From the NCBI RefSeq assembly GCF_965641715.1, contig NZ_OZ282455.1: DNA of 64,000 nucleotides. One strand, 5' to 3'. Made by a program: the position numbers and the translations under genes. The notes below the pieces were generated by a model. The model ran no database searches. It was not told the origin of the DNA and was given only the letters and a program-made list of their open reading frames with translations. This DNA is from Escherichia coli. GTDB lineage: Bacteria; Pseudomonadota; Gammaproteobacteria; Enterobacterales; Enterobacteriaceae. Of the stretch, positions 16,699-40,621 are shown piece after piece. Position 1 is the first letter of the stretch; each line of letters begins with the position of its first letter.

Positions 16699-17907
16699 TC
16701 AGAATTCGTTGTCTGTAGCAGGTGTGCGGGGCAGGATGTCGTCGGTGAGGGACCAGTTGGTCAGGATGCGGCGTTTCCGGTCGCGATCTGGTTGTGGTTC
16801 ATCCCAGATAAGACCGAGACTGAGCATATCCCGCCGTAAGCCTTCCACCGCTTCATCAACACAGGGTTCAGGGCAGGGAAGACCAAAACGCATGGCTTCG
16901 GCCTCTGCACGTGCAACGGCCACCACGCCAGCGCCTTCAATAAATCCTTTCGTGGTATTGGCGCGGTGTAATGCATAAAACAGCGTCCTGTCCACGCCTT
17001 TCAGCCAAATCCAGTTGGGTGGCGTAAGCCGCAGGTCATGTGCATACAGCCAGACCAGCCCACTGCGGACGTAGCGATGTTGTTTCAGCCATTGCTGTGC
17101 TCCGTTGCTTTTAATCACTCTCTGGAAAGCTGATTTGGCCAGTGAATAAACAGGGGTACAGAATTTCCCACTGTCCCGTTTGCTTTTAATTCTGCATGAG
17201 AGGTTCAGTGTATCCATGAGCTTTAATGCTGCCTTACGATCATCCAGGAAATACTGAAGACCAAATATGGCAAAGAGCGCTTTTTCATGTGGTGCCATGT
17301 CTTTCCAGGACGTTAAAGGTTTACCCAACTGGGCCATGAAACATCGTCTTGCAGCTGCAACATCGAGCTGCATATTGGTGATGAGAGTATGCTGCTCGAC
17401 AAATGCTTCCGGGGTGAGAGCAACCCGCCGTTCAGGTCGTTTGCCACCATGAAAGAGTTTTTCCGGATCACCATCTGCCAGTACAGGGGCGATAGCAGGG
17501 GACAACGAAGCAAAGATGTGTGGCAGTCGGGTAATATCTACTGGTCTGCGGGTGAAACGGCTTTGTCCCGGATGTTGATACCATTCCCACAAACACCAGA
17601 GTGTCACAGGTAAGAGGTACATCCACAGAATACCTATGGTCTGCTCCATGACGTTAACCCACTGGCTATAGCTTATGTTGGCGGCGTTGTTACCGGTCAT
17701 GGCAAGCAGGTTGTATCGTGGTGCTGCATAGTTATGAAATGGCCCCCAGTCGACCAGTCCCCATAAGGTATGAAGAATCAGGCAGCTGGCGTAAACCACT
17801 TCCGGCAAGAATAACCATATGACGAATAGCAGCAGGATAAGAAGGACACCAACAGCGCCCCATATCTGCATAGGATCTTCTGCGACAGGCTGTCGATTGT
17901 AAGACAT
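16699..17907 (-). CDS. trbA: TrbA membrane protein
   Basis: 402-aa ORF with hydrophobic N-terminus at the R64 trbA position. Confidence 0.65.
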   Translation of the reverse strand: MSYNRQPVAEDPMQIWGAVGVLLILLLFVIWLFLPEVVYASCLILHTLWGLVDWGPFHNYAAPRYNLLAMTGNNAANISYSQWVNVMEQTIGILWMYLLPVTLWCLWEWYQHPGQSRFTRRPVDITRLPHIFASLSPAIAPVLADGDPEKLFHGGKRPERRVALTPEAFVEQHTLITNMQLDVAAARRCFMAQLGKPLTSWKDMAPHEKALFAIFGLQYFLDDRKAALKLMDTLNLSCRIKSKRDSGKFCTPVYSLAKSAFQRVIKSNGAQQWLKQHRYVRSGLVWLYAHDLRLTPPNWIWLKGVDRTLFYALHRANTTKGFIEGAGVVAVARAEAEAMRFGLPCPEPCVDEAVEGLRRDMLSLGLIWDEPQPDRDRKRRILTNWSLTDDILPRTPATDNEF

Positions 17908-34762: not shown

Positions 34763-37700
34763 TCATCGGCCGGGGCTGTGGGAGAGATCCTGATGCAGAG
34801 TTTTTTCCTGCCTGTCCTCCGGCTTTTGGCTGTTGGACCACTGCTGCCATGACTGCTCGAAGCCCAGGTTCCGGTACAACGCATCAGGTTGTTTTTCCGG
34901 CGTGTAGACAGCAGCAAAAAGCGGTTCTTCCCGGGTTTTCAGATGAAACTGCATAAGCTCCGGTGCGGGGCGATTCGTGCTGTCAGCATCGTGGTTTACC
35001 GCTTCACCATAACCTGCAAAGCGTAAACCTTTGTCGGTCAGCGCATTGATAACCAGCTGACTGTTGTCGGCTGATGGGGTGGCCAGTGCCGGATACAATG
35101 TGCCGTTCAGCCGGACCACACCCTGCAGATGTTCATCGGCACTCTGGACAAGTAGCAGGTTGAGTTCACGCGTATCCTTATCCACTGATCCCAGAACAGG
35201 TGTCAGCTTGTCAGGGGCTGCGCTGGTTATTTCTGTTACCTGATTTGCGTTCTGTGGCGCGGAGACCGGATGTCGGTCTTCACCGATAAACAGATGTGAG
35301 CCGACGTTTTCTGGCATACGTAACGTTTTCATCTCTTCGGGCCACCCCTGGCTGATTTGCGCAGCCACTTTCATAAAGGTTTCGACCGGAATCGCCTGAA
35401 TACGCTGACCTTTATCCGGATTATCATGTGATACCGAGATCCCGTTGGTAACTGACTCCATGGACCACTTATTCCGGAAACGTGCTTTTTGCTCTCCCGG
35501 GAGGATGAATTGTTCGCGGTTCTGAAGTGTCAGTGTCACCACGTCACCTTTCTGATGGTTTTTGACCAGACTTTCCAGTTGCTCCCCCCAGTAGAGTTTG
35601 CTGCCACTGCGGTTTTTAAGCTCAACAAAGAAACTCTCTCCTTTGCCGGGTGCATATTCAGCACGACCAAAATTGTGCAGTACGGCAGTCACGCTCTCTC
35701 CCGGGCGAAGTTTTCCTGGTGGTTCTTCACCTTGTGCCGCATCTGCCGTTTTGCCAGGTTCAGCCGGTGATGATGCAGGGACGGTGCTGACGGTTGATGC
35801 TTCAGGGGCTATTGGGGACGCCGGGGATTGTGTGGCTTCTTTTTCCTGAACAGGGTCTGGGACTGCTGGTTGTTCAGGGGTATTCCGGTTAAGTTCCGGT
35901 GTTGGCTTATGGGTGACAACAGCATCCTTACTGACAGCCATTTCCTTGCGTAATTTTTCTAGTTCAGCCCGTTGATCTGGCAATTTCATCCGGACATCGA
36001 TGTTGTGCTCGATAATCAACTGCATTGCTTTTTGCTTAAAGGCATCACTGCCCGTCAGCTCTATGACGCCCCCATAAAATTTGGTGGCCACAGCAAGTGC
36101 GGCCAGAACGCTGCGATCGTCATTGCTGGCACCGTTGACCATTTCCAGCCGGTTTACCCGGTCAATGAAGGCAGGTTTGCCATCCAGTTTGTACAGGACG
36201 GTTCTGTCTGCTCGTTTTTCCCAGTCGAGCTCTTTAAGAATTTCGTCCATGTTGAGCGATATCGGTGCATCAGAACGTTCCGGGGCGTAGACAATACTGT
36301 CAGGTATCGGTGGAGTCGTCGTGGTTTCCGCTGAGGGCGTGGGATCACTGTTCTCATGTGCCTGTGAATCCGTTTTTTTACGCGTAAAAAAGCCACGCGC
36401 TTTGTCGAGAAACGATGAAGTATTATCAGAAGGTGATGTGCTCTGAACAGGTTGCTGTGGAGTGGGTTCATCCCGGACAGCCGGTTCTGCAGTATCTGTT
36501 GTGGCCTGAAGTTCTGACTCATCTGCCTGAACGTGGTCTGTGTCCGGTTGCGACGGCATATCACTGTTTTCCTGCAGATGCTCAGGATTTTCATTGTTCA
36601 TCAGCTCCTGATATGCGCTGTAGTTTTCGTATTCTTCGGGGCCATCTGACTCAGGAAGGAACGGCTCTGGCTGAAGGGGAATGTCTTCAGTTACATGGTT
36701 GACCGCCTCTTCCCGGGGAGTATCCGGGGATATTCCGGTGCTTTGTTTGTCATCAGGCTCCGTCATCACGGTCATTTCCTCTTTGACTGCATCAGGGGAA
36801 GGTGATGGCTCGGCTGATTCATTCATGGTTTCAGATGAGGGACTGTCTTCAGGGGATGCGGGGGCGGCAGCAGGGGCCGGTATTTCAGGTGAAGTGCCGG
36901 ATTCCTGTTGTGACTCGTTTTTTTCCGGTTGTGACAGTTCGGCTTCAAATTCACGCCAGTCTTTATCTGTGGCCACCGAGACAACTTTTTCCGGAGGTTC
37001 CGCCGGATGAGCGGGTTCATCAGGGGCAGATGCCGTTGTACTTTCCGGGGACGCCGGTGATTCTGCAGGGGAGTCCTGAACTACAGAGCTTTCCGTTTGC
37101 GCCTGAACGTTATCAGCGTGCCGCTCATCTTTGCCGTTATTTTCAGTGGCGTGACTGGTAAATGACTGTGTTTCATCAGCAATGTTACTGCTGGAAGCAG
37201 CTGGTTGTTCCTGCTGCGTGGCGGACGGCAGAGAAGGTCCCTGGTCATGGCTGTGCCCTGTATCGGGTGATGTTTCAGGATATTCTGTCGGAGTCATGGT
37301 TTTTTCCTCAGTGTGGACCGGTGTAAAAACGAGGTTGCCGATCACCAGTGCCTCGCGGATTTCCGGGGTGTTACTGTTGGGGGTGGAAACCCCGATGTGT
37401 TCTAACTGGGCGTTGATGACATGCTGAAAAGCGGCCCGTCCCCGGCTTGCGTCCAGGTCATTGAAATCGGTCAGCCCCTGCGCTTTTTCGGCATCGGTGA
37501 ACGCAGGAAAGATGACCGTTCCTCCTGTCAGTTCTGCGGCTTTTGTTGCACTGACGATACCTTTGTTAACCCGGATTGCATGATCGTTGTCGGCACAGAA
37601 GATAAAGGGGCTTTGCGTCCACTTTTGCCGGGCATTTTCGGCAACGGCAATCATGTTGCCTCCATCCACCGTCATCAGTACCGGAAGGCCCGTGGCTTCG

Positions 37701-38530
37701 TGCAGGGAGGCCGCAGTGGCATAGCCCTCGGCAAACAGTACCGGCTGACCGTTGCGCGGTGTGCCCAGCGCAAACCAGTTACCGGTTTTCTCTGAATCTT
37801 TCAGGATGCGGGCATCCTTCCCCCCGGTGACCGGAATACGCTGGTAAGAGCGTATCGCGCCGTTACGGTTACTGAAGGGAATAACCAGTTCATTTTTGTT
37901 GTTTACCCGCACCCCCGGTGCAGCCTGAATGCCTTTCCGGGTCAGGTATTCATGTGCTGTGGCCTGCGGCCATTTGTTGACATAGCGGCGGGCATACGCG
38001 GCCTGTCGGTTGTACTGTGCTTTCAGTTCCCGCTCCGCGTCCTCCCTGCGTTGCATTGAATGCGCTTTCAGGTGGAGTCTTGCGCGGGGATCTGTCTGTT
38101 CTCCGCCGGAGAAGGTCCAGGTGATCGGCGAATCATCCGCGCTGCGATAATCCCTGTACCAGCCGGCAGGTCTGCCGTCCAGGAATCCGCGATATGCGCC
38201 ACTTTTTTGTCCTTTTTTGTCATCGGCGGTCGGGACACGGTGGATTTTCCCGTCCATGACCGGCAGTTCTTTCAGAACCAGTCCGGCATTCTCCAGAACC
38301 TGGGCAAACTCGGTGACCGGATCACTGCCGTTCATGGAGACGTCCTGTGGCCGGGGCAGCCAGCGGTCCAGCCTGGACAGGTCCGCCCCCGGGCGGGCGA
38401 ACCAGAGTTTGTGCTCCTTGTCCCAGATGACGGGCGTGTGCCCGTTCATCGGGGGATGTGCTTTTTTGAGATCTTCTATTTCATCTGCAGGCACGGCAAG
38501 CCAGGTGCGGTAGCGGGATACAGACGGCAT
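34763..38530 (-). CDS. sogL: conjugative DNA primase Sog (SogL; SogS expected from an in-frame internal start)
   Basis: Very large ORF with N-terminal primase-like region, a long acidic Pro/Ser/Glu-rich low-complexity linker and a C-terminal domain; start at Met 13 gives 1255 aa, the size I recall for SogL. Confidence 0.8.
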   Translation of the reverse strand: MPSVSRYRTWLAVPADEIEDLKKAHPPMNGHTPVIWDKEHKLWFARPGADLSRLDRWLPRPQDVSMNGSDPVTEFAQVLENAGLVLKELPVMDGKIHRVPTADDKKGQKSGAYRGFLDGRPAGWYRDYRSADDSPITWTFSGGEQTDPRARLHLKAHSMQRREDAERELKAQYNRQAAYARRYVNKWPQATAHEYLTRKGIQAAPGVRVNNKNELVIPFSNRNGAIRSYQRIPVTGGKDARILKDSEKTGNWFALGTPRNGQPVLFAEGYATAASLHEATGLPVLMTVDGGNMIAVAENARQKWTQSPFIFCADNDHAIRVNKGIVSATKAAELTGGTVIFPAFTDAEKAQGLTDFNDLDASRGRAAFQHVINAQLEHIGVSTPNSNTPEIREALVIGNLVFTPVHTEEKTMTPTEYPETSPDTGHSHDQGPSLPSATQQEQPAASSSNIADETQSFTSHATENNGKDERHADNVQAQTESSVVQDSPAESPASPESTTASAPDEPAHPAEPPEKVVSVATDKDWREFEAELSQPEKNESQQESGTSPEIPAPAAAPASPEDSPSSETMNESAEPSPSPDAVKEEMTVMTEPDDKQSTGISPDTPREEAVNHVTEDIPLQPEPFLPESDGPEEYENYSAYQELMNNENPEHLQENSDMPSQPDTDHVQADESELQATTDTAEPAVRDEPTPQQPVQSTSPSDNTSSFLDKARGFFTRKKTDSQAHENSDPTPSAETTTTPPIPDSIVYAPERSDAPISLNMDEILKELDWEKRADRTVLYKLDGKPAFIDRVNRLEMVNGASNDDRSVLAALAVATKFYGGVIELTGSDAFKQKAMQLIIEHNIDVRMKLPDQRAELEKLRKEMAVSKDAVVTHKPTPELNRNTPEQPAVPDPVQEKEATQSPASPIAPEASTVSTVPASSPAEPGKTADAAQGEEPPGKLRPGESVTAVLHNFGRAEYAPGKGESFFVELKNRSGSKLYWGEQLESLVKNHQKGDVVTLTLQNREQFILPGEQKARFRNKWSMESVTNGISVSHDNPDKGQRIQAIPVETFMKVAAQISQGWPEEMKTLRMPENVGSHLFIGEDRHPVSAPQNANQVTEITSAAPDKLTPVLGSVDKDTRELNLLLVQSADEHLQGVVRLNGTLYPALATPSADNSQLVINALTDKGLRFAGYGEAVNHDADSTNRPAPELMQFHLKTREEPLFAAVYTPEKQPDALYRNLGFEQSWQQWSNSQKPEDRQEKTLHQDLSHSPGR

Positions 38531-38619
38531 GAGTGCTTCTCCTGAAAAAAGACGGAAAAAAACCACCGCCGGAAGCCGGGGGTGGCTGGGGGGATAGAAA
38601 ATCGGGGGAGAAATGTTTG

Positions 38620-39171
38620 TCAGGGTTTCCAGTCTGTACCCTTATTCCAGCGATCCTGCCAGTGTTCAAGATATTGTGCGGCTACATCCGGCATATTCTT
38701 GAGCACAACGACATTCTCTGAATTCTTGCGTGCAGCAGCACGAGAGAAGTTATAGGAGCCAGTTTCAACCGTGTTTCCGTCAACAATGATGACTTTGTCG
38801 TGATGGATGGGGAAGGCATCTACAGTCCGGAGAGGAATGTCCAGCAGGTTGATATATTTCATCGCTTCCTGACTTGCCCGGTTCGTATTCCCCTTGTCAT
38901 CAACAACAATACGGACGTCCACTCCGCGTTTTTTCGCTTTTGCCAGCGCATGCATTACATCCGGGTCGGTGAAGGAATATGCCATCATCCTGATGGAGCT
39001 TTCCGCACTGTTGATTGTGTCAAGCACCAGAGCGGATGCGCTTCCTTCAGGAGAAAAGCCGACCTTCACGGATGGCGTGTCGATCATTGCAAACGATGGT
39101 GTCGTGAACAGTAACGGGCATGCCAGTAGCGATACCCGGAGCAGAGTAACGATAGTTTTTTTACCTGACAT
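38620..39171 (-). CDS. nuc: phospholipase-D-family endonuclease Nuc
   Basis: Signal peptide plus HKD motif (HHDKVIIVDG...GSYNFS); start chosen at MSGKK, track ORF is longer. Confidence 0.75.
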   Translation of the reverse strand: MSGKKTIVTLLRVSLLACPLLFTTPSFAMIDTPSVKVGFSPEGSASALVLDTINSAESSIRMMAYSFTDPDVMHALAKAKKRGVDVRIVVDDKGNTNRASQEAMKYINLLDIPLRTVDAFPIHHDKVIIVDGNTVETGSYNFSRAAARKNSENVVVLKNMPDVAAQYLEHWQDRWNKGTDWKP

Positions 39172-39185
39172 AAAGACTCCAGAAT

Positions 39186-39476
39186 TTAATCGAGGCCAGT
39201 CCAGTCTCGTGGTGATTCCGTATGGTGGCGATACCACCATGGACGACCGGAGGCGATGGCCCCTCTCAGAATGCTGAAAATGCGTGTACAGATAGTCCTG
39301 ACAGTCCAGCCTGAACGGTCGAGAATAACGAAAAATAAAATGATGCCGGTGCAAATCCAGAAGGTTGTTTTGGAGGGAAAGGGGCATATAAACAGATAAA
39401 TCATGGTGAACGGCAGAGGTACGCCCTGGATGTTGACTGGCGGTGTTGCATATCGCCAGAAACCTTCTCTTTTCAT
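39186..39476 (-). CDS. traK: TraK (IcmT-like small membrane protein)
   Basis: 96-aa hydrophobic ORF between nuc and traJ. Confidence 0.55.
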   Translation of the reverse strand: MKREGFWRYATPPVNIQGVPLPFTMIYLFICPFPSKTTFWICTGIILFFVILDRSGWTVRTICTRIFSILRGAIASGRPWWYRHHTESPRDWTGLD

Positions 39477-40621
39477 GACCGTAACTCCCCTGGCGGGATA
39501 AAAAGAATCGCTTCTCTTCGGTCAACTTCATTCCGGATATACATTTCCAGAATCTGGTCCCGGATACGGCGCTTCTCCTGCCGGATTATGGCATCAATGT
39601 GATGCCCCCACTCTGCATGCGGCATTCCGGAAAGATTGTCGCGAAGCTCATCGTTAATGACGATATATTCCCGGACGGCTTTACGACCACCGTCATTTGT
39701 TCTGACCAGAACCTGAACCAGAATGAACTGCAACAGTGACAGGACAGCCCAGGCCATCGAATCCCTGATGACAGGGGGAAACAGCCCAAGAAGACGTGCC
39801 AGCGTTTCACCAGGAGATTTCGTATGCATGGTGCTCAGGCAGTAATGCCCGGTGTTGCCTGCCTGTACCGCTGCGTCGGCGGTTTCGTTATCCCTGATCT
39901 CACCAACACCGATAATTTCGGGATTACGTCGTACAGCAGAACGCAGTCCGGCAGCAAAACTGACCACATCACGCCCGATTTCTGCCTGATGCGGTGGGAG
40001 CAGATCGTTTTCATTTCCCAGGATATATTCCACCGGGTCTTCATATGTCACGATTTTGGCGTCGGGGAAATTGTCCATAATGTAACGGTACAGTGCTGAA
40101 CACAGCGTTGATTTTCCTGACCCGGTTTCACCACATACAAATCCCAGACCGCTTTTGCAGACCATTGCTTCAAGCAGGTCTGGTTCAATGTTCATGGAGA
40201 GAATGTCCGGTATTTCTGTCGGGATGACACGCATGGTTATTGAGATTGCTTTCTCCTCCGCACCAGATGTGCCCTGAATGAGGTGAGAGCGTAACCGGAT
40301 GCGTTCTCCGCGTTTAAGACCATAGCGCCCGGATGCATCCCCGTTAATCTGTATCGTCCTGTCAACCGGATTGCCTGCCAGAACGCGGGGAATGACTTCC
40401 CGACCGAACAGTTCATCAATCAGGGAGGACATGAGTGTGGTTGGTAACGTTGCACTGGAACAACGCACCCGTCGGCCAAAGCGACTGACAGATACAGGTG
40501 ACCCGCCGGTCAGATCCACATCACTGACTTTATGTGCGGCACACCAGACAAAGAAATGCCGTAGTTCATCTGCAGTGAAACGCTGAAACGGAAAAAGACC
40601 AAACTCATCAGGAATATTCAT
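39473..40621 (-). CDS. traJ: TraJ, PilT/DotB-like secretion ATPase
   Basis: 382-aa ORF with Walker A GETGSGKST. Confidence 0.8.
   Translation of the reverse strand: MNIPDEFGLFPFQRFTADELRHFFVWCAAHKVSDVDLTGGSPVSVSRFGRRVRCSSATLPTTLMSSLIDELFGREVIPRVLAGNPVDRTIQINGDASGRYGLKRGERIRLRSHLIQGTSGAEEKAISITMRVIPTEIPDILSMNIEPDLLEAMVCKSGLGFVCGETGSGKSTLCSALYRYIMDNFPDAKIVTYEDPVEYILGNENDLLPPHQAEIGRDVVSFAAGLRSAVRRNPEIIGVGEIRDNETADAAVQAGNTGHYCLSTMHTKSPGETLARLLGLFPPVIRDSMAWAVLSLLQFILVQVLVRTNDGGRKAVREYIVINDELRDNLSGMPHAEWGHHIDAIIRQEKRRIRDQILEMYIRNEVDRREAILFIPPGELRS

Follow-up and report, generated by a model that had tools for sequence, protein, structure and literature searches.

The sog gene of an IncI1 plasmid encodes SogL, a predicted nested SogS and a long acidic, probably disordered linker between folded modules

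We analysed a stretch of 64,000 nucleotides from Escherichia coli (contig NZ_OZ282455.1, assembly GCF_965641715.1; this whole stretch is called the window), in which the gene at 34763-38530 on the minus strand is the primase gene sog of an IncI1 plasmid. The reading that we consider likely is that this sog gives rise to a long product, SogL, and a short one, SogS, and that the acidic disordered linker in both acts as a flexible tether, with short motifs in it as docking sites. In outline, an acidic unstructured Sog linker and a nested SogS are ordinary and already described, and the gene is known. For the most part, the result is therefore routine annotation that confirms a textbook plasmid gene, locates the SogS start at 37297 and maps the domain bounds, and it will not surprise a specialist.

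Identity of the gene

The open reading frame (ORF) is Sog itself, and each defining feature that could be tested was found in it. The initial annotation of the window had named the gene Sog, and the EGYATA primase motif at residues 268-273, the neighbours nuc and traL and 97.6% amino-acid identity to ColIb-P9 Sog bear this out. The alignment to the ColIb-P9 protein (NC_002122.1 64518-68285) is gapless, with 30 substitutions and no indel; LPD7 accounts for 13 of the substitutions and linker 1 for 10. ColIb-P9 Sog also has 1255 amino acids (aa), as does that of R64, and the earlier impression that the length differs from the known size was mistaken. Moreover, the interval that had been given for the linker, 34763-38530, is the entire 1255-aa frame, of which the linker is only a part. 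Plasmid CP114352.1 carries sog DNA that is 100% identical to that of the window. Matches to sog were found in 1839 plasmid records, 1318 of them with at least 80% of the gene covered, and the plasmids are nearly all conjugative MOBP/MPF_I plasmids from Escherichia, Salmonella and Shigella. Annotated relatives name the gene sogL (LC567056.1) and have the order nuc-sog-traL-traM-traN; together with the neighbouring ORFs, they place the window gene between nuc and traL in the IncI1 tra region. Since it is collinear with ColIb-P9 Sog and placed in the order nuc-sog-traL, the gene is the sog of an IncI1 plasmid, at reference length.

Composition and predicted disorder of the linker

The domains of SogL are listed here (pLDDT, predicted local distance difference test).

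34763..38530, minus strand: sog coding sequence, SogL of 1255 aa plus TGA stop (ORF, plasmid DNA match, ColIb-P9 collinearity)
37295..38530, minus strand: N-terminal module, residues 1-412, with DUF5710 (8-59) and primase/Toprim (266-365)
37712-37729, minus strand: EGYATA primase motif, residues 268-273, from the sequence
36299..37294, minus strand: linker 1, residues 413-744 (332 aa), acidic, non-repetitive, predicted disordered, Pro/Glu/Ser/Thr-rich
35924..36298, minus strand: LPD7 domain, residues 745-869 (Pfam LPD7 E=3.6e-14 at 775-862; pLDDT >90)
35717..35923, minus strand: linker 2, residues 870-938 (69 aa), predicted disordered, Pro/Ala/Ser/Glu-rich, pLDDT <50
34766..35716, minus strand: C-terminal beta-rich module, residues 939-1255

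The bounds of linker 1 were set from the conservation among homologues and from AlphaFold: conservation of the N-terminal module extends up to Met412, and the linker runs from residue 413. Linker 1 consists of 14% Pro, 13% Glu, 13% Ser, 10% Thr, 9% Ala and 8% Asp. It has 71 acidic (Asp + Glu) versus 15 basic (Lys + Arg) residues, a net charge of -56, an isoelectric point (pI) of 4.05 and only 11 aromatic residues. When Sog was scanned in segments of 41 aa, the fraction of Pro, Ser, Glu, Thr and Gln was 0.49-0.68 over about residues 381-761, versus 0.12-0.39 elsewhere; over the same region, the hydrophobic fraction was 0.05-0.27 and the net charge 0 to -11 per segment. The window has 49 ORFs of 150 aa or more, and the longest hydrophobic-poor stretch in any of them is that of Sog (222 aa; runner-up 109 aa), which is more than chance would give. 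For the SogS part, AlphaFold with an alignment of 44 sequences gave pLDDT <50 at almost every position of SogL 412-737 and 869-938, in total 353 out of 844 residues in SogS. The confident domains in this model are SogL 745-869 (LPD7) and about 946-1249, and the pLDDT of these flanking domains is 85-97. Thus, the long acidic low-complexity stretch described in the initial annotation is real, and its proposal of a disordered middle agrees with the AlphaFold check. To call it the middle third was fair, as linker 1 makes up 26% of the protein and both linkers about 32%. Its location "inside the primase" holds for the Sog protein as a whole, but not for the primase domain, which the linker follows; linker 1 sits between the primase and LPD7. 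Low hydrophobicity with high net charge, no confident fold and fast evolution of sequence and length mark intrinsically disordered linkers. All of these were found, and linker 1 would be expected to behave like a typical linker of this kind.

In the N-terminal module, which is basic (pI 9.08), Pfam reports DUF5710 at 8-59 (E=1.2e-8), and Toprim_3 at 266-365 (E=7e-5) with 23.6 bits, just below the curated cut-off of 27.2. The C-terminal part modelled alone (933-1255) reached a pLDDT of 87.8. Foldseek returned weak but uniform matches of the C-terminal module to the oligonucleotide-binding (OB) fold single-stranded DNA (ssDNA) binding proteins such as POT1, RPA70 and SSB. The fold of this 310-aa module is predicted with confidence but has no strong relative among solved structures, and the module lies inside the SogS-coding part that is classed as required for transfer.

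Two side observations concern relaxases. Residues 756-820 of Sog match the end of the NCBIfam TraI/MobA(P) relaxase model far under its cut-off (19.8 vs 250 bits). The NikB relaxase of the plasmid (10590-13289, plus strand, 899 aa) has Relaxase and TraI_middle domains. LPD7 was considered as a common export domain of the two exported proteins of the plasmid. Pfam finds no LPD7 in NikB; therefore the domain is not common to Sog and NikB, and this candidate was dropped.

Predicted translation start of SogS

37295..37297, minus strand: internal in-frame ATG of SogS, Met412, leaving 844 aa (92.4 kDa calculated)
37305..37309, minus strand: SogS Shine-Dalgarno GAGGA, at -12 to -8 of the internal ATG, the same in ColIb-P9
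38539..38543, minus strand: SogL Shine-Dalgarno AGGAG, 8 nt upstream of the ATG at 38530-38528, read from the sequence

SogS is predicted to start at Met412 (37297) with its own ribosome-binding site, GAGGA. Met412 is the sole ATG between residues 340 and 520 of the Sog frame, and both this ATG and its Shine-Dalgarno context are the same in ColIb-P9. Published sizes are 1255 aa for SogL and 844 aa for SogS, the latter arising from in-frame re-initiation of translation (PMC6112013), and the annotation of pESBL, based on R64, puts sogS at the corresponding position (PMC4288162). Homologues either retain Met at position 412 or have a Val encoded by GTG. No sigma-70-like promoter was found in a search within sog, which agrees with internal initiation of SogS translation. 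The initial annotation had expected the SogS start near the upstream edge of the linker, and Met412, which leaves exactly the published 844 aa, lies one residue before it. Linker 1 therefore constitutes the N-terminal 40% of SogS, and it is present in both products.

The calculated masses are 138.0 kDa for SogL and 92.4 kDa for SogS. The Sog products reportedly have apparent sizes of about 210 and 160 kDa. If these sizes are right, the excess of about 70 kDa in both would fit anomalous migration of the acidic linker in sodium dodecyl sulphate polyacrylamide gel electrophoresis.

Length variation among homologues

Length was compared among 27 homologues of distinct length (1087-1405 aa). In full-length homologues, the N-terminal module has 393-400 aa and is 67-99% identical, and one protein has a 50-aa deletion in it. 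In every homologue compared, LPD7, counted over a fixed span (reference positions 766-865), is 100 aa long and the C-terminal module 310 aa. Overall, the folded modules are of fixed length and 61-100% identical. The length of linker 1 lies between 202 and 498 aa among the closer homologues, which are 48-100% identical, and its identity is 27-39% in diverged lineages; linker 2 has 62-105 aa. Two IncI1-type proteins have in-frame linker deletions of 112 and 168 aa (P0003 and P0004). Thus, all length variation of this primase family is confined to the two disordered linkers, while the folded modules keep their length.

Within IncI1, the length of sog is almost always constant. From the 1839 matching plasmid records 40 were sampled; 28 align across the full 3804 nt, 23 of which keep the exact length. 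The small indels (-3, +9 nt) are located in the linker.

For more distant relatives, residues 745-1255 were searched against 1.84 billion representative proteins, which gave 280 relatives. Among the 150 listed, 41 have both a Sog-type N-terminal module and LPD7, and these representatives share a pairwise identity of no more than 50%. The spacer between primase and LPD7 has 30-715 aa in these 41 proteins, is rich in Ala, Pro, Glu, Thr or Ser and has a negative net charge in 41/41. Some of the longest spacers, with a hydrophobic fraction of 0.23-0.30, may hide an extra domain. The earlier proposal that length varies in the linker region thus agrees with both the closer homologues (202-498 aa) and the 41 distant ones (30-715 aa). 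An ordered region of invariant length, which had been named as the result that would speak against it, was not found: the region is predicted to be disordered in the window Sog, and its length varies among the homologues.

Repeats were the other part of that proposal. In the window linker, Tandem Repeats Finder reported no tandem repeat, no 6-mer is repeated, and the direct repeats are only pairs of 15-23 nt, at chance level. Self-similarity was measured by windowed Smith-Waterman alignment against shuffled sequences, as self-BLASTP gave no off-diagonal matches, shuffles included. The best internal alignment scored 61 versus 49.6 +/- 4.4 in shuffles and was reached by 2 of 60 shuffles, which is marginal. 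As a positive control, the linker of P0058 is clearly repetitive (177 versus 54 +/- 5 in shuffles). In the IncK2/Z plasmid pMS7163B, the linker of sog (1353 aa; L011 2048-2918) contains diverged direct repeats of 164 nt (3 copies), 70 nt (4 copies) and 36 nt (2.3 copies), and segmental repeats in linkers of this type explain the range of 1150-1405 aa among the closer homologues. Linker 1 of the window is of low complexity yet non-repetitive, and the window allele has no repeat array. The "length-variable repeats" of the initial annotation therefore apply to closer homologues with long linkers only. The idea behind them, that the linker is a repeat array whose changing copy number makes Sog length-variable, is very improbable: it can draw on the diverged repeats of pMS7163B and P0058, but it is opposed by the absence of tandem repeats and repeated 6-mers from the window allele, by direct repeats at chance level and marginal self-similarity, and by the exact length kept in 23 of 28 full-length-aligned IncI1 records.

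Conserved motifs and selection

36932..36967, minus strand: acidic-aromatic motif A, DKDWREFEAELS, residues 522-533, predicted short helix
36596..36634, minus strand: acidic-aromatic motif B, EYENYSAYQELMN, residues 633-645, predicted short helix
36365..36415, minus strand: basic amphipathic island, SFLDKARGFFTRKKTDS, residues 706-722, within the acidic linker

Three motifs stand out in linker 1, and they were visible only in aligned blocks and through a test for enrichment of aromatic pairs; an automatic scan for conserved islands (smoothed identity >=0.45, 9 sequences) flagged nothing in linker 1. Motif A is a helix in the AlphaFold model at SogS 111-122, with a pLDDT of about 65, and is kept in P0005 and P0133. 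Motif B is modelled as a helix at SogS 225-233 and aligns to DDWSAFAEDL, DDWNAFAEDL and AQDWQHFEEEM in lineages with otherwise unalignable linkers. The consensus of the acidic-aromatic motifs is roughly [DE][DE]-[WYF]-x-x-[FY]-x-[DE]-x-[LM]. The basic patch, SFLDKARGFFTRKK at 706-719, is kept as SLFSRLRRFLTGGK and ALLDRFRGFFSRRP in other lineages. Pairs of the form aromatic-x-x-aromatic occur 3 times in the window linker versus 0.35 expected (P = 0.003), and 41 times in 39 distant linkers versus 10.2 expected, an enrichment of about 4-fold.

Among seven IncI1 alleles, the ratio of nonsynonymous to synonymous substitution rates (dN/dS) was 0.31 for both linkers, 0.13 for the N-terminal module, 0.19 for LPD7 and 0.08 for the C-terminal module. 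This shows a constraint on the linker that is relaxed but real. A charge that is conserved over 41 lineages and three motifs in unalignable sequence provide concrete targets for mutagenesis.

The same alleles differ by segment. Allele H4 is the same as the window allele in the N-terminal module and linker 1, yet has a synonymous divergence (dS) of 0.20 in linker 2, and allele H10 has a dS of 0.27 in LPD7 only. With divergence that jumps between segments, the IncI1 sog alleles (loci L001-L007) look like recombination mosaics. A sogS fragment is one of the five loci of IncI1 plasmid multilocus sequence typing (PMC2887853), a use that mosaic sog alleles fit.

Features upstream of sog

Upstream of the ATG at 38530, the sog frame stays open for another 12 codons, as far as the GTG at 38566. 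This extension overlaps a weak hairpin of 5 pairs that resembles a terminator and has a T-run after it, at 38551-38567 on the minus strand, between the nuc stop and the sog ATG. The ORF upstream of sog (38620-39531, minus strand) was mechanically called with 303 aa. Relatives annotate a nuc of 155-183 aa, a phospholipase D family nuclease, at its 3' end, and the 303-aa ORF is probably an artefact of choosing the first start codon.

Discussion

ColIb-P9 Sog is known to act as a primase and to pass into the recipient cell (PMC8406263, PMC7213743). Export delivers hundreds of copies of Sog to the recipient and does not depend on DNA (PMC8406263). Deletion of sog from R64 lowers transfer only about tenfold (PMC6112013). 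By transposon insertion sequencing (TnSeq), the SogS-coding part was classed as fully required for pESBL transfer and 26% of SogL as non-essential (PMC4288162). On the domain map of SogL, linker 1 connects the basic primase module (1-412) to LPD7, and linker 2 then joins LPD7 to the beta-rich C-terminal module. We propose that linker 1 is a flexible, extended and highly soluble tether that lets the primase act far from the part needed for conjugative transfer and transport. The three motifs, two acidic-aromatic helices and one basic amphipathic patch, are probably docking sites. Sequence and length of the linker would drift fast by segmental duplication and deletion, with its negative charge and composition maintained by selection.

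Several points weigh against this proposal. That linker 1 is a tether and that its motifs are docking sites is inferred. Low pLDDT is a proxy for disorder. A long linker is not essential to the family, because the spacers of P0223 and P0255 have only 30-39 aa. The uniformly negative charge hints at more than a passive spacer. TnSeq is silent on the linker as such, because insertions in it also truncate the C-terminal module. Regarding SogS, the GTG of some homologues says little for a conserved start codon at position 412, since a single-step change from Met to Val can yield no other codon.

It is tempting to speculate that the linker does more than tether. It could be a multivalent docking element by which Sog is brought to TrbA/TrbC, the type IVB coupling complex of IncI1, or to the incoming ssDNA, as the conserved negative charge, the two acidic-aromatic helical motifs and the basic amphipathic patch might suggest, although we regard this as a long shot. 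If true, it would explain the DNA-independent export of hundreds of copies, and the linker would be a disordered signal for secretion or recruitment that lies inside the protein, for which there is no described example among conjugative type IVB substrates. As Sog is a classic example of export in a conjugation system related to Legionella Dot/Icm, it would be useful to know which part of it is recognised. A related explanation makes the linker itself the secretion signal, an internal array of Glu-rich, E-block-like sites that is read by TrbA and drives DNA-independent Sog export. IncI1 transfer does use a Dot/Icm-like system (TraJ/DotB, TraM/DotI, TraN/DotH), and TrbA (16699-17907, minus strand) matches structures of DotM (IcmP; PDB 6EXA/6EXE) with E about 2e-8. 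The acidic, Glu-rich peptides to which DotM binds have Phe as well (PMC5802825), Sog leaves the donor in hundreds of copies without dependence on DNA (PMC8406263), and the linker, with 13% Glu and 8% Asp, is net negative in 41/41 relatives and carries acidic-aromatic motifs. However, E-blocks are C-terminal, whereas the linker is internal (413-744 of 1255) and the last 20 residues of Sog (…QEKTLHQDLSHSPGR) are not acidic. Natural variants lack 112-168 aa of the linker, and the spacers of some relatives have only 30-39 aa. Moreover, in the alignment to 6EXA/6EXE, TrbA keeps only R314 of the four Arg of DotM that bind Glu-rich peptides; in place of DotM R196, R197, R217 and R315, TrbA has D, V, D and T. 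Because TrbA is without most of the binding arginines, we have demoted this explanation to an improbable one.

Acidic tails of E. coli SSB, T7 gp2.5 and T4 gp32 mask DNA-binding surfaces until a strand is met. We take the acidic-aromatic motifs of Sog to resemble the SSB tip DDDIPF. By analogy, the linker could be an intramolecular mimic of ssDNA that masks the basic primase module and nucleic-acid-binding surfaces of the C-terminal module until the transferred strand is met. The pI values of 9.08 for the N-terminal module and 4.05 for the linker, the uniform, if weak, OB-fold matches of the C-terminal module (POT1, RPA70, SSB) and the conserved negative charge would fit this function. Yet this linker lies inside the protein, and its length is ten times that of known acidic tails. 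DNA binding by Sog is putative, and we consider such masking doubtful. The opposite possibility is that the linker is neutral filler left from a domain fusion, where any hydrophilic spacer works and all features are mutational drift. It is nearly unalignable between lineages (22-39% identity), varies from 30 to 715 aa, suffers large natural deletions and has a dN/dS above that of the domains. Nevertheless, this dN/dS of 0.31 is still well under 1, the net charge is negative in 41/41 lineages, three motifs persist amid unalignable sequence and aromatic pairs are about 4-fold enriched, all of which makes mere filler unlikely. We therefore retain the flexible tether with motifs as docking sites as the preferred explanation.

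Comparison with known systems

Like the Sog linker, the E-blocks of Legionella Dot/Icm are acidic, Glu-rich, disordered sequences in a type IVB substrate, and the plasmid encodes the DotM homologue TrbA. E-blocks are found in about the last 30 residues and the Sog linker in the interior of the protein, and TrbA is without three of the four DotM Arg. The Sog linker can also be likened in function, but not by homology, to the disordered linker and acidic tip of SSB from bacteria and to the acidic tails of T7 gp2.5 and T4 gp32: each is a disordered low-complexity segment that carries acidic-aromatic motifs and is joined to a module that handles DNA. These tails are C-terminal and far shorter, in contrast to the internal 332-aa linker of Sog, whose C-terminal DNA binding is putative.

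Among conjugative primases, Pri of the IncM plasmid pCTX-M3 and TraC1/TraC2 of RP4 (IncP) resemble Sog in having, at least potentially, long and short in-frame products and in their link to transfer into the recipient (PMC6112013, PMC7213743). Pri of pCTX-M3 is only 23-30% identical to SogL. In RP4 TraC1, Toprim is C-terminal and DUF1738 (ArdC-like) N-terminal (PMC7213743), and Sog has neither arrangement: Pfam reports only DUF5710, Toprim_3 and LPD7 in it, with Toprim in the N-terminal module and no DUF1738. Given its different domain order and its lack of DUF1738, Sog is not a TraC-type primase.

The sog genes of related plasmids, such as the 1353-aa IncK2/Z form (range 1150-1405 aa), encode the same domain order, a conserved internal start and the same motifs in an acidic linker. 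Their folded domains are fixed in length and show 61-76% identity. In contrast, their linker 1 has 243-498 aa, contains more Thr and Ala and, in part, diverged segmental duplications, and is essentially unalignable with the IncI1 linker. Finally, Sog of ColIb-P9 and R64 (SogL/SogS) is the same gene, with the same length, internal ATG, Shine-Dalgarno sequence and position between nuc and traL, and the window Sog differs from it only by the 30 substitutions.

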